Assembly: GCA_963666345.1 (NCBI GenBank)
Contig: OY762721.1
Coordinates: forward strand, 2,528,001 to 2,592,000
DNA length: 64,000 nucleotides
From: Desulfatiglandales bacterium
Lineage (GTDB): Bacteria; Desulfobacterota; DSM-4660; Desulfatiglandales; Desulfatiglandaceae
Direction: 5' to 3'
Below the pieces are notes generated by a model that had not been told where the DNA came from, ran no database searches, and was given only the letters and a program-made list of their open reading frames with translations. A program made the translations under genes and the position numbers. Shown piece by piece: positions 38,206 through 59,086 of this stretch (position 1 is the first letter of the stretch; each line of letters opens with the position of its first letter).

Positions 38206-38469
38206 TTTCCCGCCGGGACCGGGCACGTTCCCGGAGGGTTCAAGATTCAAGGCCCGTCCTGTCGCGACACGGTGATTGATTGATAAACAGGCGGAGCTTC
38301 ATGGTGATGATAGTCTATTGAGAATATGGCAATGTTTATCGGTCCGGGCCATGGGTTAGGGCGAAATGCAAAAGATTACAAAGATTTTAAGTTATGGCGG
38401 AAGTAACAGGGCCTCTGCGTGGAGATATGGAATAACGGTAAAATCATCAAAGAAAGATAAGAAACAATA

Positions 38470-39396: not shown

Positions 39397-39408
39397 GTAT
39401 TTTTTTAA

Positions 39409-41321: not shown

Positions 41322-41326
41322 TTCAA

Positions 41327-42484: not shown

Positions 42485-42533
42485 ATGCCGGGCACTTTAA
42501 CCTTCAGCAAGAGAAAGAGCGGAAAACTGTTTC

Positions 42534-43412
42534 ATGGATATAAAAAATAAGAGCAATGAATCAATCGCTTCTGGAAATAACTGGCTTAAGGAATGTTCCA
42601 ATAATATTTTTTCGCAGTTTGGAGAGGATGGGATAATAGAAAAGATCTTTTCCATGCTTCCCGATTCAAACAGATGGTGTGTGGAATTCGGGGCGTGGGA
42701 TGGGAAGCACCTTAGCAATACCCATCTGCTGCTCAGCCAAAAAGGATGGTCCGGTGTATTGTTCGAGGCAAGCCGGGAAAGATTCGGAGATCTCCTTCGA
42801 ACATATGATGGTAATGAAAAAATAATCTGTATTAACAAGATGGTAGCCTTTGAAGGCAAAAATACCCTTGACCGGCTCCTTGCTATAACCCCGGTCCCTG
42901 AAGATTTCGACCTTCTTTCCATTGATGTAGACGGGAACGATTATCATATATGGCGGTCGCTGGAAAAATACAGGCCCCGTGTCGTGATTATAGAGTTCAA
43001 TAACACTATCCCGAATTCCGTGGAGTTTATCCAGCCGGCTGATCCGTCGGTCAATCAGGGCTCTTCTCTTCTTGCCATGTGCAACCTGGGCAAAGAAAAG
43101 GGATACGAACTTATCGCGGTAACGGATTCTAACGCTTTCTTTGCAGACGCCAAGTACTTCGAATTTTTCCAGATAGGAGAAAATTCACCTGAGGCTATGA
43201 ACGGGGACCAGAAATATCTGACCCATATCTTTCAGCTTTATGACGGTACCCTGGTTGCTGAAGGAAATCTGAAACTTTTGTGGCATGGAATACCTATTGA
43301 CCAGAAAAAGATTCAGGTCCTTCCCAGCTCATTCAGGTATTTTCCGGAGAAAAAAGTGAACCCTTTAATTAAGTTTGCTTTTTCCATATACAGGAAGCTG
43401 TTTTTAAAGTGA
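42534..43412 (+). CDS. FkbM-related methyltransferase-fold protein
   Basis: SQFGEDGII, VEFGAWDG, LSIDVDGNDY. Confidence 0.75.
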   Translation: MDIKNKSNESIASGNNWLKECSNNIFSQFGEDGIIEKIFSMLPDSNRWCVEFGAWDGKHLSNTHLLLSQKGWSGVLFEASRERFGDLLRTYDGNEKIICINKMVAFEGKNTLDRLLAITPVPEDFDLLSIDVDGNDYHIWRSLEKYRPRVVIIEFNNTIPNSVEFIQPADPSVNQGSSLLAMCNLGKEKGYELIAVTDSNAFFADAKYFEFFQIGENSPEAMNGDQKYLTHIFQLYDGTLVAEGNLKLLWHGIPIDQKKIQVLPSSFRYFPEKKVNPLIKFAFSIYRKLFLK

Positions 43413-43462
43413 ATAAAATGGATTTGTCTATATTGCTTCTAGCCTAGGGAAAGAGGCTCTAA

Positions 43463-44200
43463 TTGAAAATTGATATTATGCGACCTGTAAAACGAGTTAC
43501 CTTTTACAAGGATTACTCGACCTTTAAGGGGCAGGCAAAAAGATCGAAAGAGCTGTTTCCTTTGGGAAAACCATATCCCTGCCTGGATGAAAAAAATGAG
43601 CAAAGCGGAACTGCTGCGGGGCACTACTTTCATCAGGATCTTCTTGTGGCCCAGAAGATATTCCATAATAGACCTGAAAGACATGCCGATGTAGGTTCAA
43701 GAATAGATGGATTTGTGGCCCATGTGGCGTCTTTCAGGGAAATCGAAGTCTTTGATGTCCGTCCCCTGGAGATTGATATTCCGAATATAAAATTCAGACA
43801 GGCAAATTTCATGGAAAAAGATTTTGATCTCTTAGACTGCTTCCCTTCCATTTCATGCCTTCACGCGATAGAGCATTTCGGCCTTGGAAGATATGGGGAT
43901 AAAATCGATTTCGAAGGTCACCTGAAGGGGTTGGATAACATATACGGGATGCTTCAAAAGGGAGGGAAATTTTACTTCTCAGTGCCTATCGGTCCCCAGC
44001 GGATAGAATTTAATGCGCACAGGATTTTTTCGATGAGATATCTTATCGATCTTATTGAACCGAAGTACAAAATCGATTCTTTTTCATATGTAAATGATGA
44101 CGGCAATTTGGTAAAAGATGCGGCTCTTCATGAAAAAGATATCAGAAACAACTATTTTTGTAATTATGGTTGCGGTATTTTCGAACTTACAAAGAAATAG
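43463..44200 (+). CDS. DUF268 domain protein (SAM-methyltransferase-like)
   Basis: HYFHQD, DVGSRIDGFV, SCLHAIEHFGLGRYGD, FNAHRI. Confidence 0.8.
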   Translation: MKIDIMRPVKRVTFYKDYSTFKGQAKRSKELFPLGKPYPCLDEKNEQSGTAAGHYFHQDLLVAQKIFHNRPERHADVGSRIDGFVAHVASFREIEVFDVRPLEIDIPNIKFRQANFMEKDFDLLDCFPSISCLHAIEHFGLGRYGDKIDFEGHLKGLDNIYGMLQKGGKFYFSVPIGPQRIEFNAHRIFSMRYLIDLIEPKYKIDSFSYVNDDGNLVKDAALHEKDIRNNYFCNYGCGIFELTKK

Positions 44201-44278
44201 AAACAAATTTATCCTGTTATTCCTGTAATCATAGCACTTTGTTTAAAATAACATTTGAGAGGTTGATTTATCAAGCCT

Positions 44279-44875
44279 ATGTTTGACTACATGCAAAAGC
44301 TCAGATACCGATGGAACTATAAGAAATGGAGTTCAAAGGGAAAACCTGAACCTGTTCCACACTTTGTAAAGCAGATGGTGGTACTTGAATATGCCGCCAA
44401 ATCGGGTATCGATATCTTTATCGAGACCGGGACATATCTGGGTGATATGCTTAAAGCGGTAAAAAGAAGGTTCGACATGATCTATTCCATAGAACTCAGT
44501 GAAGAGTATTTCAACCGGGCCAAAAGGAAATTTCAAAGACATAGGCACATAGAAATATTTCAGGGTGACAGCACCGATGTCCTTCCTATGTTAGTGAGTA
44601 AGATTGAAAGGCCTGCTTTATTCTGGCTGGATGCGCATTATTCCTCGGGGAAAACCGCAAGGGGAAAAAAGGACACCCCGATAATTGAAGAGTTAAAGAC
44701 AATCTTTGACTCTAAAATAAGCGGGCATGTTATTCTGATAGATGATGCCAGATGTTTCACCGGGGAAAACGACTATCCCGAAATAGAGGATCTGAAGGCT
44801 TTTACAGTCGAAAAATATCCCAAAAGCTCATTTGAGCTGCAAGATGATATAATAAGGATACTTACCTTCAGATGA
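44279..44875 (+). CDS. SAM-dependent methyltransferase-like hypothetical protein
   Basis: FIETGTYLGD, SIEL, GDS, FWLDAH, ILIDD. Confidence 0.7.
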   Translation: MFDYMQKLRYRWNYKKWSSKGKPEPVPHFVKQMVVLEYAAKSGIDIFIETGTYLGDMLKAVKRRFDMIYSIELSEEYFNRAKRKFQRHRHIEIFQGDSTDVLPMLVSKIERPALFWLDAHYSSGKTARGKKDTPIIEELKTIFDSKISGHVILIDDARCFTGENDYPEIEDLKAFTVEKYPKSSFELQDDIIRILTFR

Positions 44876-45045: not shown

Positions 45046-45423
45046 TTGAGAGGATTTTTGACCGGATATCTTTGCATCCTGGGCACCGTGTTATTAACCG
45101 TTTATGGACAGTTGGTTATTAAATGGCAGATAATTAAAGCCGGGGCTTTCCCGGAAGGAATTACAGAAAGGGTATGGTTTCTTTTGCGTATGGTGTTCAA
45201 TCCGTGGGTGATAAGCTGCCTGGCCGCGGCCTTTCTGGCTTTTCTCTTATGGATGGTGGCTATGACAAGATTTGAATTAAGCCATGCATATCCGTTTGTG
45301 AGCATGTCATTTGTGGTTGTCCTTGTATTGAGCGGCCTTTTTTTCCATGAATCAATAACAGTGCCTAAACTGCTGGGGGTATTGTTGATAATGTCAGGTA
45401 TTATTGTAGGGGCTCAGGGATGA
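45046..45423 (+). CDS. SMR/EamA small membrane protein, ArnE/ArnF-like undecaprenyl-P-sugar flippase
   Basis: 125 aa, 4 TM, ELSHAYPF motif. Confidence 0.8.
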   Translation: MRGFLTGYLCILGTVLLTVYGQLVIKWQIIKAGAFPEGITERVWFLLRMVFNPWVISCLAAAFLAFLLWMVAMTRFELSHAYPFVSMSFVVVLVLSGLFFHESITVPKLLGVLLIMSGIIVGAQG

Positions 45424-46295
45424 AGGTATGCCTGTCATGCGGGCAGCGATTTTCAGCCCAAGACTGGCGGTGTCCTTCCTGCAATAAATATCCTGAAACG
45501 GTTGATGACTTTCTTTCCTTTGCTCCTGATCTTGTGTCGGAAAACGACGGGTTTGAAGCGAAATCCTTTGAAATGCTTTTCAAGGTTGAGGCTGCGAATT
45601 TCTGGTTCAGGTCACGTAACAGACTATTGATTTGGACATTGCGGAAATATTTCCCAAATGCGAAAAGTCTTTTTGAGATTGGATGCGGCACCGGCTATGT
45701 CTTGTCCGGAATTCAAAGCGAATTACCGGGCCTTCATTTATATGGAAGCGATATCTTCAGTAACGGTTTGTCGTTTGCTGATAAGCGTCTGTTCGATGTC
45801 TCGCTTTTTCAGATGGATGCAAGGCTGATACCCTTTGAAGAGGAATTCGATGTAATTGGCGCGTTTGACGTCCTGGAGCATATTGCTGAAGACGATGTCG
45901 TGCTTCAACAGATGTTCCAGGCGGTAAAACCGGGGGGGGGGGTAATAATAACTGTTCCGCAGCACAGGTTTTTATGGAGCATAGTGGATGCATACTCATT
46001 TCACAAACGACGATACACGAAAACGGAACTGATAAAAAAAGTGAAAGATGCGGGGTTCCAAGTTATGTATTCTACCTCCTTTGTCTCTTTTCTGCTGCCC
46101 CTTATGCTTCTTTCACGTATGAAAAGGCATGTCTCTACAGACAAGTTTGATCCCCTGGCGGAACTTAGAATCGGACGGGCTGCAAACAGGGTGTTGGAAA
46201 AGATCCTTGCTGTGGAAAGGCGATGCATCAAGTTGGGTGTGTCTTTGCCAGCAGGTGGATCGCTTCTTGTCATAGCAAAACGAAGCAGGAGGTGA
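45420..46295 (+). CDS. class I SAM-dependent methyltransferase with N-terminal Zn ribbon
   Basis: CLSC/CPSC, EIGCGTG, FDVLEHI, KPGG. Confidence 0.88.
   Translation: MKVCLSCGQRFSAQDWRCPSCNKYPETVDDFLSFAPDLVSENDGFEAKSFEMLFKVEAANFWFRSRNRLLIWTLRKYFPNAKSLFEIGCGTGYVLSGIQSELPGLHLYGSDIFSNGLSFADKRLFDVSLFQMDARLIPFEEEFDVIGAFDVLEHIAEDDVVLQQMFQAVKPGGGVIITVPQHRFLWSIVDAYSFHKRRYTKTELIKKVKDAGFQVMYSTSFVSFLLPLMLLSRMKRHVSTDKFDPLAELRIGRAANRVLEKILAVERRCIKLGVSLPAGGSLLVIAKRSRR
45932..45942 (+). repeat. G11 homopolymer within methyltransferase CDS
   Basis: aaaccGGGGGGGGGGGtaata, in frame (P-G-G-G-V). Confidence 0.9.
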
Positions 46296-46298
46296 TAA

Positions 46299-47447
46299 TT
46301 GAGCACTTTGATTTCTTTTAACAGGCCTTTTATCGTAGGCAAGGAATTATACTATATCGCGCAGGCGGTTCAGGACGGTCATCTGGCGGGAGACGGCAAT
46401 TTTACAAAGAAGTGCAATGAGTGGATGGAGCGGACCTTCCAGGCAAAAAAGATTCTGCTTACTCATTCAGGCTCCGGGGCTCTTGATATATGTGCCATGC
46501 TTTGCGATATAAAGCCCGGTGATGAAGTCATAATGCCCTCCTTTACTTTCGTTTCAACCGCCAACCCTTTTGTCCTGGGAGGGGCGCGCATCAGGTTCGT
46601 TGATATCCGTCCCGATACCCTGAATATCGATGAGACTCTGATCGAAGCTGCTGTCAACGAACATACCAGGGTGATTGTGCCGATGCATTATGCGGGTGTC
46701 GGCTGCGAGATGGATTCGATCATGGATATAGCGCACAGGCATGATCTGCTTGTCGTGGAGGACGCGGCCCAGGGGGTGAATGCTACTTACAAGAAGCGAT
46801 ACCTTGGAACAATCGGTCATCTGGGTGCTTACAGCTTTCATGAGACCAAGAATTTTATAAGCGGCGAGGGCGGGGCACTTGTTGTAAATGATGAGAGGTT
46901 TATTGAACGAGCTGAAATTATCAGGGAAAAGGGGACCAATCGAAACAAGTTTTTCCGCGGAGAGGTGGATAAGTATACCTGGGTGGACATTGGATCGTCA
47001 TTTCTGCCCTCGGAGCTGGTTGCGGCGTTTCTTTACGCTCAGCTTGAAGAGGCTGATGTCATAACGATGAAGAGGAGCGCGATATTCAGCTATTACTTGG
47101 AACAGCTTTCTCCGCTATGTGAAAAAGGGCATATCCGTATACCATCATGCCCCTCTGAATGTCGGCATAACGCCCACCTCTTTTATCTTTTAATTGATAA
47201 TGCTCTGGGCGATCGTGACCGGTTGATTGCATATTTAGAAAAGAGAAATATTAATGCGGTATTTCACTATATCCCACTACATACATCGCCAGTGGGTATT
47301 GGAATGGGCTACAGAGAAGGAGAGCTGCCGGTTACAGAGGATTTGAGCGAGAGACTTGTGCGGCTTCCCTGTTATTATGAACTGACAAGGGAAGATCAGG
47401 ACAGGGTAATTGACGGGGTCTATGAATTTTTCGGATTCCACAGGTAA
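46299..47447 (+). CDS. wecE: dTDP-4-amino-4,6-dideoxygalactose transaminase (DegT family)
   Basis: PSFTFVSTAN, EDAAQG, SFHETKN PLP lysine, REKGTNR, DKYTWVDIGSS. Confidence 0.9.
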   Translation: MSTLISFNRPFIVGKELYYIAQAVQDGHLAGDGNFTKKCNEWMERTFQAKKILLTHSGSGALDICAMLCDIKPGDEVIMPSFTFVSTANPFVLGGARIRFVDIRPDTLNIDETLIEAAVNEHTRVIVPMHYAGVGCEMDSIMDIAHRHDLLVVEDAAQGVNATYKKRYLGTIGHLGAYSFHETKNFISGEGGALVVNDERFIERAEIIREKGTNRNKFFRGEVDKYTWVDIGSSFLPSELVAAFLYAQLEEADVITMKRSAIFSYYLEQLSPLCEKGHIRIPSCPSECRHNAHLFYLLIDNALGDRDRLIAYLEKRNINAVFHYIPLHTSPVGIGMGYREGELPVTEDLSERLVRLPCYYELTREDQDRVIDGVYEFFGFHR

Positions 47448-47454
47448 ATGTTTT

Positions 47455-47533: not shown

Positions 47534-47701
47534 AGGCAAATAAGAAGAACAACTAGGCGGCTTTTATTCCCTCTCTAAAGTGGATGGTGGAGATGACAAA
47601 GTTTGAAATATTTTTCCCTGCCCTTTTGTGAGGTTGAATCTCATTGTCATGTATTATCAGAATCGGAGTTGAAAAGAGATGGTGGAGGGATCAAGGAGAA
47701 A

Positions 47702-48886
47702 ATGACGAAACAACCCAAGATGCTTATTGCAGGAGGTGGATATGCGGATATACCTCTTATATTGGCAGCTAAAAAAATCGGCTACTATGTAATTACAAGC
47801 GGCAATCGACCCGATGAGCTTGGTCATAATTATTCGGATGAATATCAGAAAGCAGATTTTTCTGATTCAGATGCGATGTTTGAACTTGCCCGAAGTATGA
47901 AAATATCAGCTATCTGCCCGTGTTGCAATGACTTTTCTGCGCTTTCATGCGCTTATGTCGCTGAAAAATTGGGGTTGCCTGGTCATGATTCACTGGAAGT
48001 GGCAAAGATTATACATCACAAAGATCGATACAGGGACTTCGCGATTAAAAATGGCATACCTACGCCGCGTGCCAAATGGTCGAGCAATGTAAAGGACGCA
48101 CTTAAAGCAGTTAATTCACTAACATTTCCTTTAATCATTAAACCGGTCGATCTAACCGGCGGTAAGGGCGTTTCGACAATTTACGCGCAAGAACAGGCAA
48201 AAGGTGCCATAGAGAAGGCATTCCAAATATCTCGTGCAAAACGTATGGTTATTGAGGAGTATTTAGAGGGAAGCCGTCATGGTTTTTCGGCATTTTTGAG
48301 AAAAGGAAAAGTTGCCTTCTATTTTTCAGACAACGAACACTACTATTTAAATCCCTATCTTGTGTCTGCAGCCTCTGTTCCCGGTATTGTTCCTATCGAT
48401 ACAGTGAAACAGCTTTGTGATATGTCTGAGAAAATAGCGTTATTACTGTCTTTAAAAACAGGTATTTTTCACATTCAATATATACTGCATAAAGGTCAAC
48501 CTGTTATTATCGAAATATGTCGAAGAGCACCTGGTGATTTATATGTCAGGTTGGTGGAAATCGCAACAGGGGTGGATTACGCAAAATGGATCGTGAGGGC
48601 TTCAGCAGGATTAGGCTGTGAAGAATTGGAATATGTCGAACCAAAAGGCTTTTTTACTCGTCACTGTGTCATGGCATCACGAATTGGTATTATTCAAAAT
48701 ATTAACTTTGACCGATCTCTTGACGACATGATTGTTGAGAAGATGATGTGGTGGAAACATGGCGACCGAGTGACGGATGTTTTAACTACTAAATTTGGAA
48801 TTGTATTTGTGAAATTTGATTCACAGAATGAAATGATGGAAAAAACGGAAAGACTTCACGATTTGATTTATTGCCGGATAGAGTGA
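47702..48886 (+). CDS. ATP-grasp ligase
   Basis: IAGGGYADIP, HHKDRYR, IIKPVDLTGGKG, IEEYLEG, IIEICRRAPGD; AAGGAG SD before ATG 47702. Confidence 0.88.
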   Translation: MTKQPKMLIAGGGYADIPLILAAKKIGYYVITSGNRPDELGHNYSDEYQKADFSDSDAMFELARSMKISAICPCCNDFSALSCAYVAEKLGLPGHDSLEVAKIIHHKDRYRDFAIKNGIPTPRAKWSSNVKDALKAVNSLTFPLIIKPVDLTGGKGVSTIYAQEQAKGAIEKAFQISRAKRMVIEEYLEGSRHGFSAFLRKGKVAFYFSDNEHYYLNPYLVSAASVPGIVPIDTVKQLCDMSEKIALLLSLKTGIFHIQYILHKGQPVIIEICRRAPGDLYVRLVEIATGVDYAKWIVRASAGLGCEELEYVEPKGFFTRHCVMASRIGIIQNINFDRSLDDMIVEKMMWWKHGDRVTDVLTTKFGIVFVKFDSQNEMMEKTERLHDLIYCRIE

Positions 48887-48915
48887 AATTTGAAGTAATT
48901 GCAGGGAGAGAGTCG

Positions 48916-49659
48916 ATGTTAAAAAACAAAGTGGCCATAGTAACCGGAGGATCTCGAGGAATCGGTAGAGCAATAGCTCAAAAATTTGCCGAAAATGGAG
49001 CATCCTTACTCCTTGTCGCTTTGCACGAAGCAAACTTATCGAATGCAAAACAAGAAATGAACAATATGGGTCTTAATGTTAATACATTATGCGGAGATAT
49101 TTCCGAACCGGCCTTTTCGCAACATATTATGGCGCATACCCTGGGAACATTCGGCACTGTGGATATACTGGTAAACTGTGCGGGCATGATAACACGGACA
49201 CCGTTTGCAGGCCTTTCGCTGGAGGAGTGGCACAGAGTTATCAATGTAAACCTGCATGGGACATTCTATTTAAGCCAGGCGGTGCTACCTGCAATGTGTA
49301 AAAATAATTATGGGAAGATAATCAACATTACTTCACAAATGGCAAGGGTGCCTCATCCTAATGCCTCTCCCAGTTATGAGGTTTCAAAGGCTGGTATGGC
49401 CGCTTTGACACGGCATTTAGCGTATCATTATGCAAAATATAACATCTGTGTGAACTCTATCGCTCCCGGATCGATTGACACTGATTTACCGAAAAGCATG
49501 GGTACAGAATCGCGTCAAAAACTCAAAAGTGCCGTTCCGCTTGGGCGATTGGGAAAATCGGAAGAGGTTGGATCTCTGGCCTTGTTTCTTGCATCGGATA
49601 ATTCTAATTATATTACGGGTACTACCATAAATATCAATGGCGGTTCGTTAATGGATTAG
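48916..49659 (+). CDS. short-chain dehydrogenase/reductase
   Basis: TGGSRGIG, NCAG, YEVSK (YxxxK), NSIAPG; start set at ATG 48916. Confidence 0.92.
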   Translation: MLKNKVAIVTGGSRGIGRAIAQKFAENGASLLLVALHEANLSNAKQEMNNMGLNVNTLCGDISEPAFSQHIMAHTLGTFGTVDILVNCAGMITRTPFAGLSLEEWHRVINVNLHGTFYLSQAVLPAMCKNNYGKIINITSQMARVPHPNASPSYEVSKAGMAALTRHLAYHYAKYNICVNSIAPGSIDTDLPKSMGTESRQKLKSAVPLGRLGKSEEVGSLALFLASDNSNYITGTTININGGSLMD

Positions 49660-49760
49660 GATGAGCGTAAGGATTATTTCACAAAACCAATTCCATGTAG
49701 CTTTGCTGCGGGGTTAGATCTAAAATAGTTAATTTTTATTGTCGGTGTAAAACAGGGAAG

Positions 49761-50516
49761 ATGTCATCATACCTTGCAGCTTTGCTGTGTGAAAAGTTCA
49801 TCAAAAAATACATGAGGGTTTTTATGAAAGAGATTCCGCCGGAAGTTTCTAAGAGTGATAGTAATTTGATCCATGAAATATCGTCCCGGAAGCTATCACT
49901 CGGATCATTCCAGAATTTGGCTGCTACGGTTATAGCATGTAGATATCTTCTTAAAAATAAAATCGAAGGAGATTTTGTTGAATGCGGTGTCTGGCGAGGA
50001 GGGCAATCCATTATTGCAGCCAAGATTTTAGGTGAAGGCATGTATAGAAATTATTGGCTCTTTGATACGTTTTGCGGGATGACTCCGCCGACAAAGCTGG
50101 ATGTTGATTATCTGGGAAGGGAGGCGAAAAACAAGGCAGGGAAACAGGATGATGTGATTGAAAATGACTGGGTTTATGCAGAAAAGCACCAAGTCATAGA
50201 CAATATTAAAAATTTTGGACTTGATATCGGAAGATTCAAACTAATTGCCGGAGATGTCGTTGATACCTTAAAGGAATTGGATAATCTCCCCCCAAAAATA
50301 TCGTTGCTCCGTTTAGACACTGATTGGTACGAGTCTACAAAGGTTGAACTTGATGCGCTTTATGACTTGATCGTTCCAAAGGGAATTTTGATAATCGATG
50401 ATTACGGGCATTGGAAAGGAGCAAGAGAGGCGGTTGATGAGTTTTTCGAAAAACGCTTTGCCCCTTTGTTAATCCCTGTAGACTATACATGCCGTATCGT
50501 AATAAAGGCCGAATAA
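49761..50516 (+). CDS. TylF/MycF/NovP family O-methyltransferase
   Basis: GDFVECGVWRGG, FDTFCG, LRLDTDWYES, IDDYGHW. Confidence 0.92.
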   Translation: MSSYLAALLCEKFIKKYMRVFMKEIPPEVSKSDSNLIHEISSRKLSLGSFQNLAATVIACRYLLKNKIEGDFVECGVWRGGQSIIAAKILGEGMYRNYWLFDTFCGMTPPTKLDVDYLGREAKNKAGKQDDVIENDWVYAEKHQVIDNIKNFGLDIGRFKLIAGDVVDTLKELDNLPPKISLLRLDTDWYESTKVELDALYDLIVPKGILIIDDYGHWKGAREAVDEFFEKRFAPLLIPVDYTCRIVIKAE

Positions 50517-50588
50517 ATAGCAATACATATTAATTATATTTTCACATTTGTCTGGAGTTGTTCGTTAATGATTCAAGAGGTTTAACGT

Positions 50589-51689
50589 ATGCTAACAGAA
50601 AAAATAGTTTCTCAGTCAGATATAGATGAACGCTTATCGCATATTAATGAATTAAGCACGTTTCCCATTGTATTATATGGTGCTGGGTTACATGCGTCTG
50701 AAATCGAGTCTTATTTACAGGGGAAAAAGATTTGTATATCTGGCTGCTTTGTTGATGACAGGTATTTGAATTTTGAGCATCGTGTCTCACTTCCTGTCCA
50801 TTCTTTTGACACCATAAAAGAGACTTTCGACAAATTTAATGTTGTTGTAGGATTTTGCAACGATCCGGTTGTTGTGCACGAAAGGTTCAACAGAATCAAA
50901 GGGGAAAAAGTTAATTCAGTGCAGTTTATTGACTGCCGTTTTTGGCAAGAATTTGAAAAGCTGGATCTTGCTTCTATAAAGAAGAATGAAAATAATTACA
51001 ATAAAGTGTGCGCATTCTTCTCAGATGAAAAATCACAAAATACGTACGTTGAATTTATAAATGCAAAATTGACACATGATCCATCAAGGCTTTATGGTCT
51101 GTATTCAAAGCCTCAGTATTTTCCGGATGATCTCCCCATATTTATTCCAACATCTGATGATATATACATTGATGGCGGAGCATATACGGGGGATACGTTG
51201 ATTGATGTCATGGCAATGACTGGTGCCAGGGGTTGTGCAAAATATTATGCTTTTGAACCTGATGCGAAAAATGCTGAAAAATTACGGTCAGTTGTTGATG
51301 CGCGTCACTGGAATTTTGTTAAAGTTATTGAAAAAGGTCTTTGGAGCCAGCCATCGAGGGTTAACTTCGCAGAAAACAACGATACCGGTTCGGCTGTCAA
51401 TGCAATTGGAAATGTACAGATAGATGTGGATGCTATTGATACGTTTAATATTCCGGCGTCATTCATCAAGATGGATATTGAGGGATCCGAGTATAAAGCC
51501 CTTGTCGGAGCAAGAGAGACAATTCTCAAATACCGACCCAATTTGCTTATCTCCCTTTATCATAAGCCTGAGGATTTGCTGCAGATTCCGCTCTATATCA
51601 AGTCTTTGTGCCCTGAATATCGTTTATATTTGAGAATACATGGTTATTACACCGAAGAATTGGTGTTATATGCGACTGTAGGCGATTAG
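50589..51689 (+). CDS. FkbM family methyltransferase with N-terminal Rossmann-like domain
   Basis: LYGAG, IDGGAYTGDT, AFEPD, IKMDIEGSE. Confidence 0.9.
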   Translation: MLTEKIVSQSDIDERLSHINELSTFPIVLYGAGLHASEIESYLQGKKICISGCFVDDRYLNFEHRVSLPVHSFDTIKETFDKFNVVVGFCNDPVVVHERFNRIKGEKVNSVQFIDCRFWQEFEKLDLASIKKNENNYNKVCAFFSDEKSQNTYVEFINAKLTHDPSRLYGLYSKPQYFPDDLPIFIPTSDDIYIDGGAYTGDTLIDVMAMTGARGCAKYYAFEPDAKNAEKLRSVVDARHWNFVKVIEKGLWSQPSRVNFAENNDTGSAVNAIGNVQIDVDAIDTFNIPASFIKMDIEGSEYKALVGARETILKYRPNLLISLYHKPEDLLQIPLYIKSLCPEYRLYLRIHGYYTEELVLYATVGD

Positions 51690-51718
51690 CATGTTTAAAT
51701 ATATTCCAAAGGGATTAG

Positions 51719-52657
51719 ATGGTACTTAAAATGAAATTATCAATAATTAGCCCAATATATCACTCAATAAACAGTATTATCCCTCTCTATGAGCAAATTA
51801 CAGGGTCAATAAAGTCAATATCCGACTTCTCGGATTATGAGATAATTATGGTTGAGGATTGTGGCGGTGATGGATCTTGGGAACTTATTAACAAATTGGC
51901 AGTGAACGACGTGCATGTCAAGGGTATTAAATTAAGTAGAAATTTCGGCCAGCATCATGCGATTACTGCCGGAATGGATTTATGTACGGGAGATTGGGTT
52001 GTAGTCATGGATTGCGACCTCCAGGATGATCCATCTGCGATTGCTAAGTTATGGGAAAAGGCAAAGGAAGGATATGATGTCGTCAATGTTAGACGGAAGG
52101 AACGTAAAGACTCTTTTATTAAAAAAACTCGTTCCAGGCTGTACCATGTCTTTTTTAGGTGGTTAACGGGATTTTCTTACGACCCTCAAATAGCCAATTT
52201 TCATATTATGAGCAGGAAGGTGGTCGACACCTACAAAACCATGCGTGAAAGTTTTAGAGGTATCAACATTCAAATTCATTGGTTAGGTTTCTCCACCTCC
52301 AGCATAGATTTTCCGCATATGCCGCGCTACGATGGGAAGAGTTCATACACTTTAGGTAAGCTATTGGCGCTGGCTCTTGACGTAGCGGTCTCCTATTCCA
52401 ATAAACCTTTACATATTTCAATCATGATTGGCCTTATTATTTCATTTTCTTCGATGGGAATAGCGCTTTGGTTTTTTATTCGTCAGCTTATATGGAAAAT
52501 TCCGATCACAGGATGGACAAGTCTGATAGTATCAATTTGGTTTCTTGGAGGCTGTATCATCGCTAATCTGGGCGTTATAGGTATCTATATAGGTAAAATT
52601 TATAATGAAACCAAACATAGACCTATCTATGTAATTGATAAGAAAGTGAATTATTAA
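51719..52657 (+). CDS. GT2 polyprenol-phosphate glycosyltransferase (GtrB/ArnC-like)
   Basis: LSRNFGQHHAITAG, MDCDLQDDP, two C-terminal TMs, GWTSL, RPIY. Confidence 0.9.
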   Translation: MVLKMKLSIISPIYHSINSIIPLYEQITGSIKSISDFSDYEIIMVEDCGGDGSWELINKLAVNDVHVKGIKLSRNFGQHHAITAGMDLCTGDWVVVMDCDLQDDPSAIAKLWEKAKEGYDVVNVRRKERKDSFIKKTRSRLYHVFFRWLTGFSYDPQIANFHIMSRKVVDTYKTMRESFRGINIQIHWLGFSTSSIDFPHMPRYDGKSSYTLGKLLALALDVAVSYSNKPLHISIMIGLIISFSSMGIALWFFIRQLIWKIPITGWTSLIVSIWFLGGCIIANLGVIGIYIGKIYNETKHRPIYVIDKKVNY

Positions 52658-52690
52658 TTAGAATATGAATCTATTAATATACGGATATAA

Positions 52691-53740
52691 ATGGAACTGC
52701 CAGAATATATAAATATCTCACCATGTCCAGCCGATATGTTGGGAAATATTATCGGACAGATAAAACCGACTAAAATATTTCTGATAACAGACACAAATGT
52801 CCATAAATATTGCTATTCACTTATTTCAGAAAATATTCCGCCGCATAATGTCGTGACTATATTACCGGGTGAAGACCAGAAGAATCTGCAGACATGCATT
52901 GATATCTGGAAGGCTATGACAGATGCCTGTTTGGACAGACACTCCGTTGTTATCAACCTTGGTGGTGGAGTAATTTGCGACATGGGTGGATTCTGCGCTT
53001 CGGTCTATAAACGGGGCCTCTCATTCATTCACTGTCCGACTACACTTTTATCTCAGGTGGACGCCTCTATTGGCGGCAAACTTGGAATTGATTTTGAAAA
53101 TTACAAAAATCAGATAGGTGCGTTTAATAATCCAAATTATGTAATTTTATCAAATGCTTTTCTGAAAACATTGCCGTTAAATGAACTACGATGCGGTTAT
53201 GCCGAAATGATCAAGCACGCGCTGATTAATAGCGTAGAAGACTGGGAAAAACAACTGTCAATGGACTTATCAGAAATTCCATCCGAAGAACAAATAATTA
53301 ATTCTATCAGCATTAAATACCAGGTTGTGTTACAGGATCCAAAGGAAACCGGAGTCAGAAAAGCACTTAATTTTGGCCATACCATAGGTCATGCCGTAGA
53401 AAGTATTCTTTTGGATGGCAAACAAATATCGATTACACACGGGGATGCAGTGGTTGTCGGATTGATTGCCGAATCCTGGTTAAGCTATAAGTGTTTAGGA
53501 TTAAAAAAGTCGGAATTGCACAGTATTTGTAGTTACATTACAAATTATTATCCCGAAATAGAGCTAAATGGAATTTCCGAACAAGATTTTTTTAATGCAT
53601 TGCTTCAGGATAAGAAAAACATTGGAAATAGAATCCTGCCTTCATTAATTAAAAGCATAGGCGAATGTATTGTTAGCGTTTCAGTATCTGCGGAATCATG
53701 CCTGGAAGCACTTAATTTTTATCGAACTATCTACAAGTAA
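52691..53740 (+). CDS. aroB: 3-dehydroquinate synthase
   Basis: GGGVICDMGGF, PTTLLSQVDASIGGK, KNQIG, AEMIKH, RKALNFGHTIGHA, HGDAV, DKKN. Confidence 0.9.
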   Translation: MELPEYINISPCPADMLGNIIGQIKPTKIFLITDTNVHKYCYSLISENIPPHNVVTILPGEDQKNLQTCIDIWKAMTDACLDRHSVVINLGGGVICDMGGFCASVYKRGLSFIHCPTTLLSQVDASIGGKLGIDFENYKNQIGAFNNPNYVILSNAFLKTLPLNELRCGYAEMIKHALINSVEDWEKQLSMDLSEIPSEEQIINSISIKYQVVLQDPKETGVRKALNFGHTIGHAVESILLDGKQISITHGDAVVVGLIAESWLSYKCLGLKKSELHSICSYITNYYPEIELNGISEQDFFNALLQDKKNIGNRILPSLIKSIGECIVSVSVSAESCLEALNFYRTIYK

Positions 53741-53760
53741 ACATTTACTAAGGTTAAAGC

Positions 53761-55104
53761 ATGGGAAATCATAAATGGACTAAAAACAGTTGGCGGTCAT
53801 TTCCCGCCGAGCAGCAACCACACTGGCCGGATATCCAATGCTATGAAGATGTTTTAAAGAAACTATCTGAATTACCATCTCTTGTGTTTGCAGGAGAAAC
53901 TCGCGCATTAAAACGACAATTGGCCGGTGCAGCCGAGGGAAATACTTTTGTATTGCAATGTGGTGACTGCTCCGAAGATTTTTCGAGATGTACCGGACCA
54001 CGTATCCATGCACTGATCAAAGTTGTTCTGCAAATGTCAATTATTCTTGCTTATGCAGGTGAAAAACGAGTTGTGAATATCGGCAGGTTGGCAGGACAGT
54101 ATGCAAAGCCACGTTCTTTAGATGTCGAGGTTGTGGGGGACAAAGAGCTACCTTGCTACCGTGGTGACATGGTAAATAGCTGCGAACCAAACCTGCAGGC
54201 TAGAACTCCAGATCCGCAAAGAATAATAGAAGGTTATTTCAGGTCAACCGCCACCCTCAATCTTGTAAGGGCTTTTACCAGCGGGGGCTATGCAGCACTT
54301 GATATGGTTGACGCATGGCATAAAGACTTTATCGATATGTTCCCGGCAAACCGGAAATACGAAAATCTTGCCAAGGATATCCGAAAAGCATTGACCTTCT
54401 CAAATGCCATCGGAATCGATATCCATGCTCCGCAGGCAAATCAAATCGTTCTATACACTTCCCATGAGGCTCTTTTGCTCGGTTATGAGGAAGCCATGAC
54501 CAGGATAGACACAACTACCGGCGACTGGTTTGATACCAGCGCACACCTGCTATGGATCGGAGATAGGACACGTCAATTAAATGGGGCACATGTCGAGTTT
54601 CTCCGTGGTATCGGTAATCCGATTGGCGTTAAGATCGGTCCTGACTATCAAATTGATGACATAAAAAAAATTGTACAAAGGCTGAATCCCTCCAATGTGC
54701 CCGGGAAGGTTACTCTGATTACTCGTTTTGGTTCAAAAAAAATAGCCAGTCTCCTGCCACAATTGCTGCAGGAAATGAAACGTGAGGGGTTTCAGATCGT
54801 GTGGCTCTGTGATCCGATGCACGGGAACACTTATAAGAATAGCATTCCCATAAAAACTCGAAATTTCGATGATATATTAGAAGAAACCCGCATATTTTTT
54901 GATATCCATAAATCAGAAGATACTGTTGCCGGAGGTGTTCATCTTGAATTGACAGGAGAAAACGTGACAGAATGTATCGGCGGCAGGCGCAACTTTCTTG
55001 CTCAGGACCTGCAAACAAACTATCAAACCACCTGCGATCCGCGCCTTAATGCTGAACAGGCAGTGGAGTTGGCTTTTGAGCTTGCAAATATTTTAAACAG
55101 ATGA
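53761..55104 (+). CDS. class II DAHP synthase
   Basis: GRLAGQYAKPRS, SHEALLLGYE, WIGDRTRQ, CDPMHGN, GGVHLELTG, CDPRLN. Confidence 0.93.
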   Translation: MGNHKWTKNSWRSFPAEQQPHWPDIQCYEDVLKKLSELPSLVFAGETRALKRQLAGAAEGNTFVLQCGDCSEDFSRCTGPRIHALIKVVLQMSIILAYAGEKRVVNIGRLAGQYAKPRSLDVEVVGDKELPCYRGDMVNSCEPNLQARTPDPQRIIEGYFRSTATLNLVRAFTSGGYAALDMVDAWHKDFIDMFPANRKYENLAKDIRKALTFSNAIGIDIHAPQANQIVLYTSHEALLLGYEEAMTRIDTTTGDWFDTSAHLLWIGDRTRQLNGAHVEFLRGIGNPIGVKIGPDYQIDDIKKIVQRLNPSNVPGKVTLITRFGSKKIASLLPQLLQEMKREGFQIVWLCDPMHGNTYKNSIPIKTRNFDDILEETRIFFDIHKSEDTVAGGVHLELTGENVTECIGGRRNFLAQDLQTNYQTTCDPRLNAEQAVELAFELANILNR

Positions 55105-55356: not shown

Positions 55357-56853
55357 ATGGGAGCAATAAGTTTCGCTGATAATCGGTTGAAGAAGACGGC
55401 AAGATTTTTAACGATAATCCTTGTTCTTATTTCAGTTTGTATGCTGGGCAGATTTCTGTCATACGAATATAAACTCTTGAAGTATCCCTACCAGCTGATG
55501 GTGAGAGAATCACTGCAGTTGAATCACGCGATAATCATATCCGAAGGTAAGCCGTTATACGAAATAACCAAGGACCCGCCTCTTGCGATTGAACCTTACG
55601 GCCCCTTATACCCCGCCCTTGTTGCTCCTTTTATAAAGGTCTTAGGCAGGAGTCTGTTTGCTCCCCGTCTTGTTTCTTTAGGCTTTTTCTTATTGCTGGT
55701 TTTTTTTACCGCCTGCGCCGTATTCAGCCTGACTCGAAGCTGGCGCTTTGTGCTTATATCCATCGGCTTGAACGTCTTCATGTTGAACTGGGCAAGGTGG
55801 TTATTGATATGCAAGCCTGACAGCCTGGGAAACTTTTTATTGTTTATCACCCTGTTCATTCACTGGAAGTGGCCTTACAAAAAAACCGCTATTGCATCCA
55901 CCTTGATTGCCGGCATGCTCGGTTTTTTTTCAAAGGCCTATTTTGTATCAGGATTCGGTGCCATAGTCTTAAATTACTGGTTTATTCACAGGGACAAAAA
56001 GATGGCGCTTTCATATCTTCTGTATGGAAGCGCGGCCATAATTATTTCAATATTGGCAGCGGATTATATCACGGGGGGGCTATATTCCCTTTTCACGTTT
56101 AAAATCATGGCTGGCTGGGCCTCAAACAGCTATTCTTTTGCCTACCTGCTTTCAAAGCTGAAGGAGCTTGTATCTTATTTTTTACCGATACTGGTATTGA
56201 TTCCATATTGTATGCTGACAAAATCTTTTGATTATAAGCGTTATGGCCCTTTTTTTACGCATCTGGTGGTCGGGCTCCCTTTATTCGCGTTTCTTCTCGG
56301 TAATCCTGGAGCCGGTAACTACTACTGGTATTGCGTTATTCCGGCACTGATAGTAGTGGGCTGTGACCTCATAAAGAAAAGCCGGCCTGGAAATTTCAAG
56401 GTCATCATACCTTTATTACTGGCCCTCATTCTTATTATGGGTAACCGGGGCTATAGGGATTTGGTGCGAAATAAACTTGTCATACCGTCATCGGAACTGG
56501 CCGGTGAATGGACACCTGTTGCGGAACTGGTAGCCGCTGCAAAAGGACCTGTGATGAACGATGACGCTACCGCCATCCTCAATATTCATGAGGGGAAAAC
56601 CCTGTTTATGGAGGGATTGGGTTATTTTCAAAGCAGGGATTATCTTGTACGCAGGCATGGGTATTCTTTTATTGATGTCAACGAGCAGGTTGCGCAACAA
56701 AAATTCTCACTGATCATAAATCCTCAAAAGGAAATAGAGACTGAGGTTCTGAAATACTATAAACCGATCGGCAGCTACTCCGTCAGCCACCAATTCGGTG
56801 ATCACAGGCACAGCCTTGATCTTTTTGTTCCAAAAACCATTGCTGATTTGTAA
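55357..56853 (+). CDS. polytopic membrane protein, putative GT-C (ArnT/PMT-like) glycosyltransferase
   Basis: ~11-12 TM, periplasmic loop with RE and YGPLYP, PRLVS, KPD motifs; last gene of glycan locus. Confidence 0.65.
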   Translation: MGAISFADNRLKKTARFLTIILVLISVCMLGRFLSYEYKLLKYPYQLMVRESLQLNHAIIISEGKPLYEITKDPPLAIEPYGPLYPALVAPFIKVLGRSLFAPRLVSLGFFLLLVFFTACAVFSLTRSWRFVLISIGLNVFMLNWARWLLICKPDSLGNFLLFITLFIHWKWPYKKTAIASTLIAGMLGFFSKAYFVSGFGAIVLNYWFIHRDKKMALSYLLYGSAAIIISILAADYITGGLYSLFTFKIMAGWASNSYSFAYLLSKLKELVSYFLPILVLIPYCMLTKSFDYKRYGPFFTHLVVGLPLFAFLLGNPGAGNYYWYCVIPALIVVGCDLIKKSRPGNFKVIIPLLLALILIMGNRGYRDLVRNKLVIPSSELAGEWTPVAELVAAAKGPVMNDDATAILNIHEGKTLFMEGLGYFQSRDYLVRRHGYSFIDVNEQVAQQKFSLIINPQKEIETEVLKYYKPIGSYSVSHQFGDHRHSLDLFVPKTIADL

Positions 56854-58532: not shown

Positions 58533-58570
58533 AGATTAAAGTAACTCCAAGTTTCCAAAAATGTCACAAG

Positions 58571-59032: not shown

Positions 59033-59086
59033 TTTATGGGGAATGAAAGGGGGAGGGGATGGTTTTTCCTCTCCCCTTTTTTTCGG

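Follow-up and report, generated by a model that had tools for sequence, protein, structure and literature searches.

Class II DAHPS and 3-dehydroquinate synthase within a recurrent amino-sugar gene cassette of a Desulfatiglandales bacterium

Gene content of the locus

The window, that is, the whole 64-kb stretch of DNA analysed, contains between 46.3 and 55.1 kb a set of intact, co-directional plus-strand genes encoding a WecE-type aminotransferase, an ATP-grasp ligase, an SDR, TylF- and FkbM-type methyltransferases, an ArnC/GtrB-like GT2, AroB, and a class II DAHPS (Table 1), in agreement with the gene content and orientation given in a preliminary description of the locus. An ArnE/F-like candidate flippase and a GT-C-like membrane protein border this set. 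The gap between the GT2 and AroB genes is 33 nt and that between AroB and DAHPS 20 nt. From the ATP-grasp gene to AroB the GC content is 0.38–0.43, against 0.48 for the genome, and AroB and DAHPS share the low GC of the neighbouring genes. A domain search recognised no aroD/E/K/A/C gene among the ORFs scanned across the window, nor was an acetyl- or formyltransferase domain found among them, as had also been claimed. The envelope-glycan genes further upstream, along which GC drops from 0.51 to 0.40, are context only and do not accompany the cassette at other loci.

Table 1. Genes of the cassette and of the upstream string
Feature	Position	Strand	Evidence and remarks
Upstream envelope-glycan string: MsbA-type ABC exporter, GT2, GT9 (heptosyltransferase family), FkbM methyltransferase	36388..44875	+	
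Rest of the same string: GT1-like, FkbM-like, DUF268 methyltransferase, 198-aa protein without family match	36388..44875	+	Pfam
EamA/SMR-type small four-helix membrane protein	45046..45423	+	PF00892; ArnF NF002816 53.5 bits, below cut-off 99
Class I SAM methyltransferase	45420..46295	+	Methyltransf_23/11/25
WecE-type dTDP-4-keto-6-deoxyhexose 4-aminotransferase	46299..47447	+	NF008687 593.5 bits (cut-off 375); TIGR02379 579 bits (cut-off 434.85)
ATP-grasp carboxylate-amine ligase (predicted)	47702..48886	+	ATP-grasp Pfam families; alternative starts 47603, 47720
Classical FabG-like SDR	48871..49659	+	adh_short_C2 6.9e-62; proposed ketoreductase
TylF-family O-methyltransferase	49761..50516	+	PF05711 5.6e-33
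Two-domain FkbM-family methyltransferase	50589..51689	+	TIGR01444 58.5 bits; weak PglD_N 21.1 bits, below cut-off
ArnC/GtrB/PgfS-like GT2	51719..52657	+	PF00535; PgfS 207.5, ArnC 167.9 bits, both below equivalog cut-offs
AroB, 3-dehydroquinate synthase	52691..53740	+	TIGR01357 310.6 bits (cut-off 305)
Class II DAHPS	53761..55104	+	PF01474 636.8 bits; TIGR01358 610.8 bits (cut-off 614.7)
Polytopic membrane protein, GT-C-like (ArnT/PMT_2-like) fold	55357..56853	+	No Pfam match; at least 6 hydrophobic segments

The ATP-grasp ligase is the signature gene of the cassette. Its longest ORF spans 47603–48886, homologues align from about the ATG of MTKQPKM... at 47702, and the public annotation starts a 388-aa protein at 47720. 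A Foldseek search with the AF2 model of the ligase (pLDDT 94.7) placed 4dim at the top, followed by the L-amino-acid ligases 3vot, BacD, and RizA and by PurT; the matches to PurT and the L-amino-acid ligases had E-values of 1e-24 to 1e-27 and TM-scores of about 0.8 at a sequence identity of only 15–17%. Judged from this model, the nearest characterised folds are carboxylate-amine ligases, amino-acid ligases among them. At least 2031 homologues were found at E <= 1e-10, none of which bears a functional name. For the tailoring enzymes, the SDR has good profile-search scores against KduD-like models, the sole PDB relative of the FkbM-type protein is 2py6, and the PDB matches of the class I SAM methyltransferase are weak and generic. 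SDR, Gfo, and FkbM enzymes commonly have sugars as substrates, a point against the action on a DHQ-derived acid proposed below.

RmlA and RmlB are encoded elsewhere in the genome. The small EamA/SMR-type protein has four hydrophobic segments and is an ArnE/ArnF-like candidate flippase for an Und-P-linked sugar, and the GT2, with two C-terminal hydrophobic segments (230–255 and 263–282), is proposed to be a polyprenyl-phosphate glycosyltransferase. The polytopic protein has an ESM Atlas feature score of 0.99 to clusters with PMT_2 in 16–33% and TM-scores of 0.76–0.87 to clusters that bear the automatic names "ArnT family glycosyltransferase" and "Dol-P-Man protein mannosyltransferase", a model-based lead to a candidate GT-C transferase acting on the final acceptor. 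The route through Und-P, flippase, and GT-C enzyme put forward in the preliminary description is plausible, judged from this gene set.

Shikimate genes of the host and recurrence of the cassette

The AroB and DAHPS of the window are the single matches to these enzymes in the genome, the sole other PF00793 protein being KdsA. The best PDB matches of AroB are true DHQS (3clh, 4e-50), well above EEVS, DOIS, and DDGS (DDGS 5tpr, 4.9e-20), and its identity is 36–42% to the AroB of relatives and 51% to the cassette AroB of locus L048. The DAHPS conserves 98 of the 99 invariant columns of the alignment and is of the long form (493 bits with its best match 5uxm, versus 272 bits with 6bmc, an enzyme of the short PhzC type). 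Class II DAHPS was found in none of 20 relatives, whose DAHPS is of a different type, and in 18 members of a 401-genome sample of the phylum. A quick tree separates 18 cassette DAHPS from 16 non-cassette DAHPS of the phylum (SH-aLRT 100) with the window enzyme inside the cassette branch, and none of 500 label shuffles was as clustered as observed.

Profile searches of the genome, whose completeness is estimated at 96.7%, gave no match for aroC, aroD, aroQ, or aroK and only sub-threshold matches for aroA and aroE (84 and 25 bits). The trp genes were not found in it either, and tblastn against it with proteins of the relatives' aro-trp operon returned only the window AroB, KdsA, and paralogues; aroC is present in 16 of the 20 relatives. 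No deletion scar was found for the missing aro-trp genes, the loss of which could be recent, with the cassette left stranded. Since the other shikimate and tryptophan genes were not found in the genome, the window aroB and DAHPS cannot be housekeeping genes serving aromatic amino-acid synthesis. The preliminary description had named separate housekeeping copies as a sign of a dedicated role. There are none, which taken alone speaks against it, but the logic is reversed by the likewise missing downstream genes, and a dedicated glycan-linked pathway for the DAHPS and DHQS, as originally claimed, is supported.

The comparison covered 83 other loci. A set of 74 non-redundant ligase loci includes 13 with flanks of 6 kb or more on either side of that gene. 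These 13 well-flanked loci encode WecE in 12 cases, a GT2 in 11, an oxidoreductase (Gfo/Idh/MocA or SDR) in 11, and a class II DAHPS in 8, where its distance from the ligase never exceeds 5.6 kb, consistent with the earlier expectation that the association would recur in glycan loci. Because the gene set recurs in unrelated contigs, its co-location is not due to chance. Among all related loci an SDR is found in 16 and a Gfo/Idh/MocA protein in 35, never both and mostly directly beside the ligase. The FkbM-type methyltransferase is a conserved member (35 of 83 loci), homologues of the class I SAM methyltransferase occur in 17 of 83, usually beside WecE in the cassette, and TylF, found in none of the 83, is an accessory gene specific to the window. 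Homologues of the ArnE/F-like protein are present in 19 of the 83 loci, others carrying GtrA (PF04138) or LPG_synthase_TM proteins instead; the GT-C-like protein is not conserved beyond the window, and the large multi-helix proteins encoded at the other loci are different ones. RmlA and RmlB sit with the WecE-type enzyme in several loci, and in more distant variants an aldehyde dehydrogenase, an acid-forming enzyme, lies beside the ligase.

The shikimate enzymes themselves are less constant. DAHPS is present in 16 of the 74 non-redundant loci and is not in view in 58 of them (5 of the 13 well-flanked loci). AroB lies within the cassette at only 2 of the 83 other loci, adjoining DAHPS in both and belonging to two lineages (51% and 28% identity); 18 of 20 DAHPS-bearing loci have no AroB. 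All four other hosts tested, whose cassettes carry no AroB, have a housekeeping AroB, and all four have aroC. In the cassettes, Pfam recognised no aroD/Q/E/K/A/C gene among representatives of the recurrent families, the ORFs that adjoin DAHPS at several loci, and a minority of the single-locus ORFs. Because DAHPS is not in view in most cassettes and so few have AroB, the shikimate enzymes are accessory to the cassette and could merely boost flux to any downstream acid.

Proposed pathway and alternatives

We propose, with about even confidence, that a horizontally acquired, operon-like cassette (about 45.0–56.9 kb) assembles a decorated 4-amino-4,6-dideoxyhexose on a lipid carrier for transfer to an envelope glycan, the decoration being an amide derived from DHQ. 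RmlA, RmlB, and WecE would supply dTDP-4-amino-4,6-dideoxyhexose, and the cassette DAHPS and DHQ synthase would form 3-dehydroquinate, for which the host has no other user. The ring ketone would be reduced by the SDR (by Gfo/Idh/MocA in most other versions) and the product O-methylated by FkbM/TylF, in either order. From its fold class, the ATP-grasp enzyme may then convert the carboxylate to an acyl phosphate and join it to the 4-amino group of the sugar. By analogy with the Arn and Gtr systems, the ArnC-like GT2 would load the sugar on undecaprenyl phosphate, the ArnE/F-like protein would flip it, and the GT-C-like protein would attach it to LPS or to some other surface glycan. Of the preliminary reading, the dedicated pathway and the conserved association are upheld and the lipid-carrier route is plausible, while we infer that the acyl group is a dehydroquinate, reduced and O-methylated and joined by an amide bond, and that the target is LPS. 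The evidence for a branch point at DHQ rather than at a later intermediate comes from one genome.

The ligase might instead attach a chorismate-derived acid, such as a hydroxybenzoate or aminobenzoate, or else an aromatic amino acid, with DAHPS and sometimes AroB only raising flux through the shikimate pathway, like the dedicated DAHPS genes of phenazine and glycopeptide clusters, and with the present cassette stranded by aro-trp loss. The aroB and aroC genes of all four other hosts tested, the restriction of DAHPS to part of the cassettes, and the L-amino-acid ligases among the closest folds would fit this explanation, and the O-methyltransferase could equally act on a phenol. However, the cassette ORFs scanned include no recognisable chorismate-using or aromatising enzyme, the ORFs of the present cassette are all intact, including a DAHPS that retains all but one invariant column, AroB was recruited next to DAHPS at least twice, and the conserved ketoreductase-type enzyme would have no obvious role on an aromatic acid. 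We consider this explanation rather unlikely.

The ATP-grasp enzyme could also activate the ring enol of a DHQ-derived, O-methylated cyclohexenone, as MysC does with 4-deoxygadusol, with the sugar amine adding to the ring to give a UV-absorbing enaminone and not a carboxamide. The enzyme logic of a cyclase, an O-methyltransferase, and a nitrogen-adding ATP-grasp enzyme matches, and papers on mycosporine-like amino acids (MAAs) were the only literature matches to the gene combination, one of which, in its available portion, names 3-DHQ as the branch point to MAAs and an ATP-grasp enzyme as the nitrogen-adding step on 4-deoxygadusol (PMC7693272). Given an AroB of the true DHQS type far from DDGS, hosts that are anaerobes of sediments and digesters (from record titles and run labels), and a cassette with nothing to reduce the carboxylate, such coupling appears improbable.

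It is very doubtful that reduction, methylation, and ligation act on a heptulosonate (DAH or DAHP) in place of DHQ. The AroB-less majority of DAHPS-bearing loci would agree with a branch at this level, as would the SDR and Gfo families, which often act on keto-sugar acids, and the KduD-like matches of the SDR. Against it, AroB is tightly packed by DAHPS here and lies beside DAHPS in two other cassettes, it remains intact although nothing else in this host would need it, and the tested hosts of AroB-less cassettes each have an AroB of their own.

An aminoshikimate route to an amino-hydroxybenzoate, as in AHBA synthesis, would draw on overlapping families, in that RifH, RifG, RifK, and RifL are mirrored by the class II DAHPS, the AroB homologue, the DegT/DnrJ-family PLP enzyme, and the Gfo/Idh/MocA oxidoreductase of most cassettes. 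The PLP enzyme is nevertheless a WecE equivalog, encoded together with RmlA and RmlB at several loci, searches of the genome found neither type of dehydroquinate dehydratase, and no kinase or phosphatase was seen among the cassette ORFs scanned, making this route highly improbable. That housekeeping AroB and DAHPS genes adjoin an LPS locus by chance is scarcely credible even though they are the genome's only copies, given that the remaining pathway was not found in the genome, the adjacency is repeated in unrelated contigs, the low GC is shared with the neighbours, the DAHPS belongs to the cassette branch, and the relatives have another DAHPS type and only distantly similar AroB proteins.

For the favoured DHQ-derived amide, no description of such a cassette was found in the literature. 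A sediment sulfate reducer without a detectable remaining aromatic pathway keeps its first two enzymes in a transferable amino-sugar decoration cassette, which points to an undescribed surface-sugar decoration derived from dehydroquinate.

Relation to known systems

The Arn (PmrHFIJKLM) pathway adds L-Ara4N to lipid A. There, the 4-amino sugar nucleotide comes from a DegT-family aminotransferase and is acylated at its amine; an ArnC-like GT2 then loads the sugar on Und-P, and the last steps fall to a small EamA/SMR-type flippase and a GT-C transferase. The cassette has the DegT-family aminotransferase, the proposed N-acylation before loading, the ArnC-like GT2, the EamA/SMR-type candidate flippase, and the GT-C-like protein in common with it, but would use a dTDP-6-deoxyhexose (WecE type) in place of UDP-Ara4N, lacks ArnA and ArnD, and is proposed to acylate with an ATP-grasp ligase and a pathway-made acid where Arn uses transient formylation. 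Its scores against the Arn equivalogs are all below cut-off (ArnC 167.9/529, ArnF 53.5/99, ArnB 207/631 bits). The three-component Und-P systems GtrA/GtrB/GtrC and CsbB/GtcA/YfhO, consisting of a GT2, a small flippase, and a polytopic GT-C, move plain glucose or GlcNAc. The three-part architecture is the same, and other cassette versions use a GtrA-family flippase, but the cassette carries a whole sugar-tailoring pathway.

PhzC and RifH are pathway-specific class II DAHPS enzymes in the secondary-metabolite clusters that they feed. Like them, the cassette DAHPS travels with its consumer cluster, and it forms its own lineage in the tree; it differs in its long form (versus the short PhzC type), in having a glycan-modification cassette as consumer, and in a host pathway that appears to stop at DHQ. 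In PurT and L-amino-acid ligases, an amine attacks an acyl phosphate, the amine of PurT being borne on a sugar phosphate. PurT, BacD/YwfE, BL00235, and RizA are the nearest characterised folds to the ligase at the low identity given above, and the closest structure, 4dim, is uncharacterised. With mys (MAA) biosynthesis, as far as the available part of the source describes it, the cassette has in common a DHQS-family cyclase, an O-methyltransferase, and an ATP-grasp enzyme adding a nitrogen nucleophile to a cyclitol-derived core (PMC7693272). The cassette cyclase is a true DHQS fed by DAHPS, whereas the mys cyclase is a DDGS acting on sedoheptulose 7-phosphate. Unlike in mys, an amino sugar nucleotide would provide the amine and the hosts are anaerobes; the likeness between the ligase and the mys ATP-grasp enzyme is drawn at the level of enzyme class.

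Composition of the locus and its enzymes

Every sizeable ORF between 36.4 and 56.9 kb of the window lies on the plus strand (see table). Pfam and NCBIfam searches bore out the gene set of the preliminary description, in which an ATP-grasp ligase, a short-chain dehydrogenase/reductase (SDR), TylF, FkbM, a GT2, AroB and DAHP synthase (DAHPS) follow wecE, and domain scans of the window agreed with its statement that aroD, aroE, aroK, aroA and aroC as well as acetyl- and formyltransferase domains are absent from this stretch. The GT2 and AroB genes are separated by 33 nt and the AroB and DAHPS genes by 20 nt, and the GC content from the ATP-grasp gene to AroB is 0.38–0.43 versus 0.48 for the genome. 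Scanning 44.0–57.5 kb for promoters and terminators gave counts that match those of shuffled sequences (32 versus 32.6 and 15 versus 12.1, respectively), and operon boundaries are not callable from them. Near-identical pieces of the cassette were present in three marine-sediment metagenome runs, none spanning the whole stretch, with 8 differing positions, too few for a selection test.

Features of the plus-strand glycan locus and the family evidence for each
Feature	Position (nt)	Strand	Evidence
MsbA-type exporter	36388-38205	+	Pfam/NCBIfam
GT2 (upstream)	38470-39396	+	Pfam/NCBIfam
GT9	39409-40512	+	Pfam/NCBIfam
Several methyltransferases and a GT1-like protein	40509-44875	+	Pfam/NCBIfam
ArnE/F-like small membrane protein	45046-45423	+	Pfam/NCBIfam
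Class I methyltransferase	45420-46295	+	Pfam/NCBIfam
WecE	46299-47447	+	NF008687, 593.5 bits (cut-off 375)
ATP-grasp enzyme	47702-48886	+	Pfam
FabG-like SDR	48871-49659	+	Pfam/NCBIfam
TylF	49761-50516	+	Pfam/NCBIfam
Two-domain FkbM methyltransferase	50589-51689	+	Pfam/NCBIfam
ArnC/PgfS-like GT2	51719-52657	+	Pfam/NCBIfam
AroB	52691-53740	+	TIGR01357, 310.6 bits (cut-off 305)
Class II DAHP synthase	53761-55104	+	PF01474, 636.8 bits
498-aa polytopic membrane protein	55357-56853	+	No Pfam match

WecE exceeds the equivalog cut-off of its NCBIfam model, and homologues of RmlA and RmlB (61% and 53% identity) are encoded elsewhere in the genome; together, these enzymes are a putative supply of a dTDP-4-amino-4,6-dideoxyhexose of either C4 configuration. 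Firm family assignments and a conserved architecture make it highly probable that the locus encodes an undecaprenyl phosphate (Und-P) amino-sugar system. The upstream MsbA and GT9 suggest LPS as the acceptor in this bacterium, and the acceptor would differ between hosts, as a Bacillaceae genome (locus L008) carries the cassette too. In the Atlas, the 498-aa protein matched PMT_2/ArnT-like GT-C clusters (TM 0.76–0.87), which offers a lead to a candidate ArnT-like GT-C transferase. Searches of the PDB and NCBIfam with the Gfo/Idh/MocA enzyme of related cassettes and the SDR returned uncharacterized oxidoreductases, FabG-like proteins and sugar or inositol dehydrogenase models, with no substrate-naming model above its cut-off. 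The predicted structure of the FkbM-type methyltransferase has a pLDDT of 72.8 (50–70 in the N-terminal domain) and is matched over both domains only by the uncharacterized 2py6, and PDB matches of the WecE-adjacent methyltransferase were weak and generic.

The substrates of the ATP-grasp enzyme are predicted from its fold and neighbors, which point to a carboxylate-amine ligase. The protein matches six ATP-grasp Pfam families, and a Foldseek search with its AF2 model (pLDDT 94.7) placed the uncharacterized 4dim first, followed by L-amino-acid ligases (3vot, BacD/YwfE and RizA) and PurT. L-amino-acid ligases and PurT convert a carboxylate to an acyl phosphate that is handed to an amine, and the amine of PurT is carried on a sugar phosphate. 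An Atlas search returned generic ATP-grasp clusters only, and at least 2031 homologues at E ≤ 1e-10 are named only as "ATP-grasp", "biotin carboxylase" or "PurD".

Six methyltransferase genes with family matches (two FkbM, one FkbM-like, DUF268, class I and TylF) lie at 40509–51689 (+) within this single glycan locus, a density that suggests a heavily methylated surface glycan; a 198-aa protein without a family match in the same stretch was noted by eye as a possible seventh. Downstream and on the opposite strand, 57033–63339 encodes a TctABC tricarboxylate-type transporter, a homologue of the ComA-family (2R)-phospho-3-sulfolactate synthase and an IclR regulator, followed on the plus strand by a sulfatase, a gene set with a possible role in sulfonated-compound handling. 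Elsewhere in the window (9685–14949, +), a 1754-aa protein combines several ABC ATPase regions with the DNA-binding and interaction domains of UvrA; its length, about twice that usual for UvrA, suggests a paralogue that arose by duplication or fusion.

Recurrence of the cassette

Close relatives of the ATP-grasp protein were identified in two Smithella MAGs and in Robertmurraya mangrovi. These three genomes and 80 stretches, kept from 97 metagenome stretches with ligase relatives, gave 83 loci that were searched by tblastn with the window proteins. Matches were obtained for the GT2 in 45 loci, WecE in 36, the FkbM-type methyltransferase in 35, class II DAHPS in 20, the ArnE/F-like protein in 19, the WecE-adjacent methyltransferase in 17 and AroB in 2; a Gfo/Idh/MocA oxidoreductase was found in 35 and an SDR in 16. 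TylF and the 498-aa protein matched in none of the 83, many of which are short. Removal of 9 near-identical loci left 74, in 13 of which the ligase gene is flanked by 6 kb or more on each side. The preliminary description had proposed a search of genomes for AroB, class II DAHPS and ATP-grasp genes within glycan loci, and among the well-flanked loci the gene association is conserved: WecE is present in 12 of the 13, the GT2 in 11, FkbM and DAHPS in 8 each and AroB in 2, and 11 carry an oxidoreductase, either Gfo (8) or SDR (3) and never both. The commonest order is GT2, ligase, Gfo/SDR, FkbM, DAHPS, flippase, methyltransferase, WecE and a large multi-helix protein, with a flippase of the GtrA, ArnE/F-like or LPG_synthase_TM type; RmlA and RmlB are encoded within the cassette in several loci.

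Among 401 sampled genomes of the phylum, the ligase was found in 2, too few for a within-phylum contingency test, and class II DAHPS was found in 18; within the order, the genome under study was the only one of the sample with either. In a quick maximum-likelihood tree (IQ-TREE; unrooted, with an outgroup from one phylum), the 18 cassette DAHPS sequences, including that of the window, were separated from 16 non-cassette sequences of the phylum with an SH-aLRT of 100, and none of 500 label shuffles was as clustered. The DAHPS is very probably tied to the cassette in function.

More distant variants, in which the ligase is 38–46% identical (L088, L094, L097, L098 and L100), also sit with WecE and a GT2, but Gfo, FkbM and DAHPS are replaced by a radical-SAM/SPASM protein and an aldehyde dehydrogenase. 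An aldehyde dehydrogenase is an acid-forming enzyme, which fits a cassette that supplies its ligase with an acid of its own making, and these variants probably place another kind of acyl group on the shared sugar scaffold. B12-binding radical-SAM genes of the class B methyltransferase type were observed within the cassette or next to it, 13 of them across 11 loci that include L025, L030, L032, L046, L058 and L077. Insertion sequence genes (IstB of IS21 and DDE transposases) lie inside two cassettes beside DAHPS or AroB (L048:12376-15634 and L039:11685-12710), consistent with modular shuffling of a shikimate sub-cassette.

Early shikimate enzymes and the branch point

The ORFs of both early shikimate enzymes of the window are intact. 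AroB exceeds its equivalog cut-off, and its nearest PDB entry is the 3-dehydroquinate synthase (DHQS) 3clh (4.2e-50) versus EEVS 4p53 (7e-26), DOIS 2d2x (8e-25) and DDGS 5tpr (5e-20). Alignment with the Helicobacter pylori DHQS showed that the motifs GGGV..D, PTTLL..VD.S.GGK, KN.IG.F, E..K, R..LNFGHT.GHA.E and HG.AV, which we take to be metal- and substrate-binding residues, are kept. Of 79 columns invariant among the AroB proteins of 8 relatives, 62 are retained, compared with 56 and 60 in the other cassette AroBs. The DAHPS matches PF01474 over its full length (positions 1–438 of 438; cut-off 27 bits), scores slightly below the cut-off of TIGR01358 (610.8 versus 614.7 bits) and retains 98 of 99 columns invariant in 33 other class II enzymes.

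The genome is a single contig of 4.16 Mb with 96.7% completeness. The only AroB and the only class II DAHPS recovered by family searches are those of the window; tblastn revealed no paralogue of either, and the sole other PF00793 protein is KdsA (NF003543, 407.6 bits, cut-off 242). Profile searches did not find aroC, shikimate kinase or a dehydroquinase of type I (aroD) or type II (aroQ), whereas the same searches matched in 7 to 14 of 14 control genomes. The AroE search reached only 25 bits (cut-off 200) and the AroA search only 84 bits (cut-off 287), the latter a match that we take to be a related enzyme. Sole copies in the genome had been expected to speak against a dedicated pathway; the copies are indeed sole, but with the later pathway genes not found, this result counts against a housekeeping role. 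Because no enzyme was found to take 3-dehydroquinate (DHQ) onward, AroB and DAHPS cannot be making aromatic amino acids.

Among 20 relatives, aroC is present in 16 and class II DAHPS in none, and the window AroB, used as query, matched the AroB of 9 relatives at only 36–42% identity. Two relatives carry their aro and trp genes in one operon-like string, whose products matched in the genome only the window AroB (34–37% identity), KdsA and paralogues by tblastn; the aroC ORFs of relatives had no match. Since relatives cluster these genes, the missing set may have been lost in one event. No clean deletion scar was found, gene order around the aro-trp operon being too poorly shared with the same-family relative G002 to reveal one; an assembly gap is a formal possibility as the cause of the absence. 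FolP, a dihydropteroate synthase (Pterin_bind, window 21733–22578), is still encoded, and this enzyme requires p-aminobenzoate. With the aro-trp set apparently absent and FolP kept, the prediction is that the bacterium relies on an outside supply of aromatic amino acids and p-aminobenzoate or on aryl-acid salvage. MqnA/MqnD (PF02621) and MenD were not found in the genome; MqnA/MqnD occur in 5 of 12 same-family relatives and MenD exceeds its cut-off in none. Menaquinone genes are thus uninformative on chorismate demand, because 7 of the 12 relatives also lack MqnA/MqnD.

No dehydroquinase, shikimate dehydrogenase, kinase, EPSP synthase, chorismate synthase or chorismate-using enzyme was recognized in the cassette ORFs scanned with Pfam, which comprised representatives of the recurrent families and the DAHPS-adjacent ORFs of several loci and few single-locus ORFs. 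AroB adjoins DAHPS in the window, in locus L048 (51% identical, same order) and in locus L069 (28% identical, opposite order), differences that indicate at least two recruitments. All four other testable hosts, whose cassettes lack AroB, encode a housekeeping AroB above the cut-off, as a branch at the level of DHQ predicts. All four also have aroC, so only the genome under study separates DHQ from later intermediates. The main rival draws on this point: AroB and DAHPS would boost flux toward a chorismate-derived acid or an amino acid, and the copies studied here would have been stranded by recent loss of the pathway. We consider this unlikely, and DHQ the somewhat favored branch point.

Proposed pathway and comparison with known systems

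In the pathway that we propose, WecE would provide a dTDP-4-amino-6-deoxyhexose, while DAHPS and AroB would provide DHQ. The SDR or Gfo enzyme would reduce the ring ketone and methyltransferases would O-methylate the product, which the ATP-grasp enzyme would join to the amino sugar as an amide. The GT2, the flippase and the GT-C enzyme would then carry the sugar via Und-P to an envelope glycan. This five-step chain, taken whole, has about an even chance of being correct. In a slightly more tentative reading, anaerobes of sediments and digesters share a widespread, transferable cassette that would divert DHQ, supplied through a DAHPS lineage of its own, to a reduced O-methylated cyclitol acid or a mycosporine-like cyclohexenone, which a new family of ATP-grasp ligases would attach to the dTDP-4-amino-6-deoxyhexose for delivery via Und-P to the surface.

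A mycosporine-like ring coupling would share with the cassette the succession of a cyclase, an O-methyltransferase and an ATP-grasp enzyme (PMC7693272), but AroB is of the true DHQS type, and we regard this alternative as improbable. In a mycosporine-like amino acid (mys) cluster the cyclase, MysA, is of the DDGS/EEVS type, whereas AroB is far nearer to DHQS than to 5tpr or 4p53 and is paired with DAHPS. Such a cluster also has a MysC-type ATP-grasp enzyme and a second ligase (MysD or MysE); neither an NRPS nor a second ATP-grasp enzyme was found in the cluster of the window. As a natural knockout without later shikimate genes, the genome narrows the precursor candidates to DAHP or DHQ, which is directly testable in vitro; that DAHP itself serves as the acid is very improbable. 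An amino-hydroxybenzoate-like (AHBA, aminoshikimate) route, which needs an AHBA synthase and an aminoDHQ dehydratase, has only a slight chance, as the DegT-family enzyme is a WecE equivalog and no dehydroquinase of either type was found in the genome, and coincidence, set beside the conserved gene association, has next to none.

If the proposal is true, it would provide the first demonstrated case of a glycan substituent taken from the shikimate pathway ahead of aromatization, and pre-aromatic shikimate intermediates would become a new class of building block for the surface glycans of bacteria. A large, so far unnamed ATP-grasp family of at least 2031 homologues would gain defined substrates, and the association of a dedicated class II DAHPS lineage with glycan genes would be explained.

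In the literature searched, with subscription journals largely outside, no link was found between DAHPS/DHQS or quinate- or shikimate-type acyl groups and O-antigen/LPS amino sugars, and neither a shikimate-branch supply nor ATP-grasp N-acylation is described there for Arn/Gtr-type systems. The Arn pathway, which adds L-Ara4N to lipid A, has ArnA and ArnD, whereas the cassette lacks both: the ORFs of 36.4–56.9 kb contain no formyltransferase, UDP-GlcA decarboxylase or polysaccharide-deacetylase domain. The remaining components score below the Arn equivalog cut-offs (ArnB, 207.1 of 631 bits; ArnC, 167.9 of 529; ArnF, 53.5 of 99; ArnE, 34.7 of 92) and are relatives of the Arn proteins, not members. 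The cassette would nonetheless work much like the Arn and Gtr/CsbB three-component lipid-carrier modification systems, without being a member of either.
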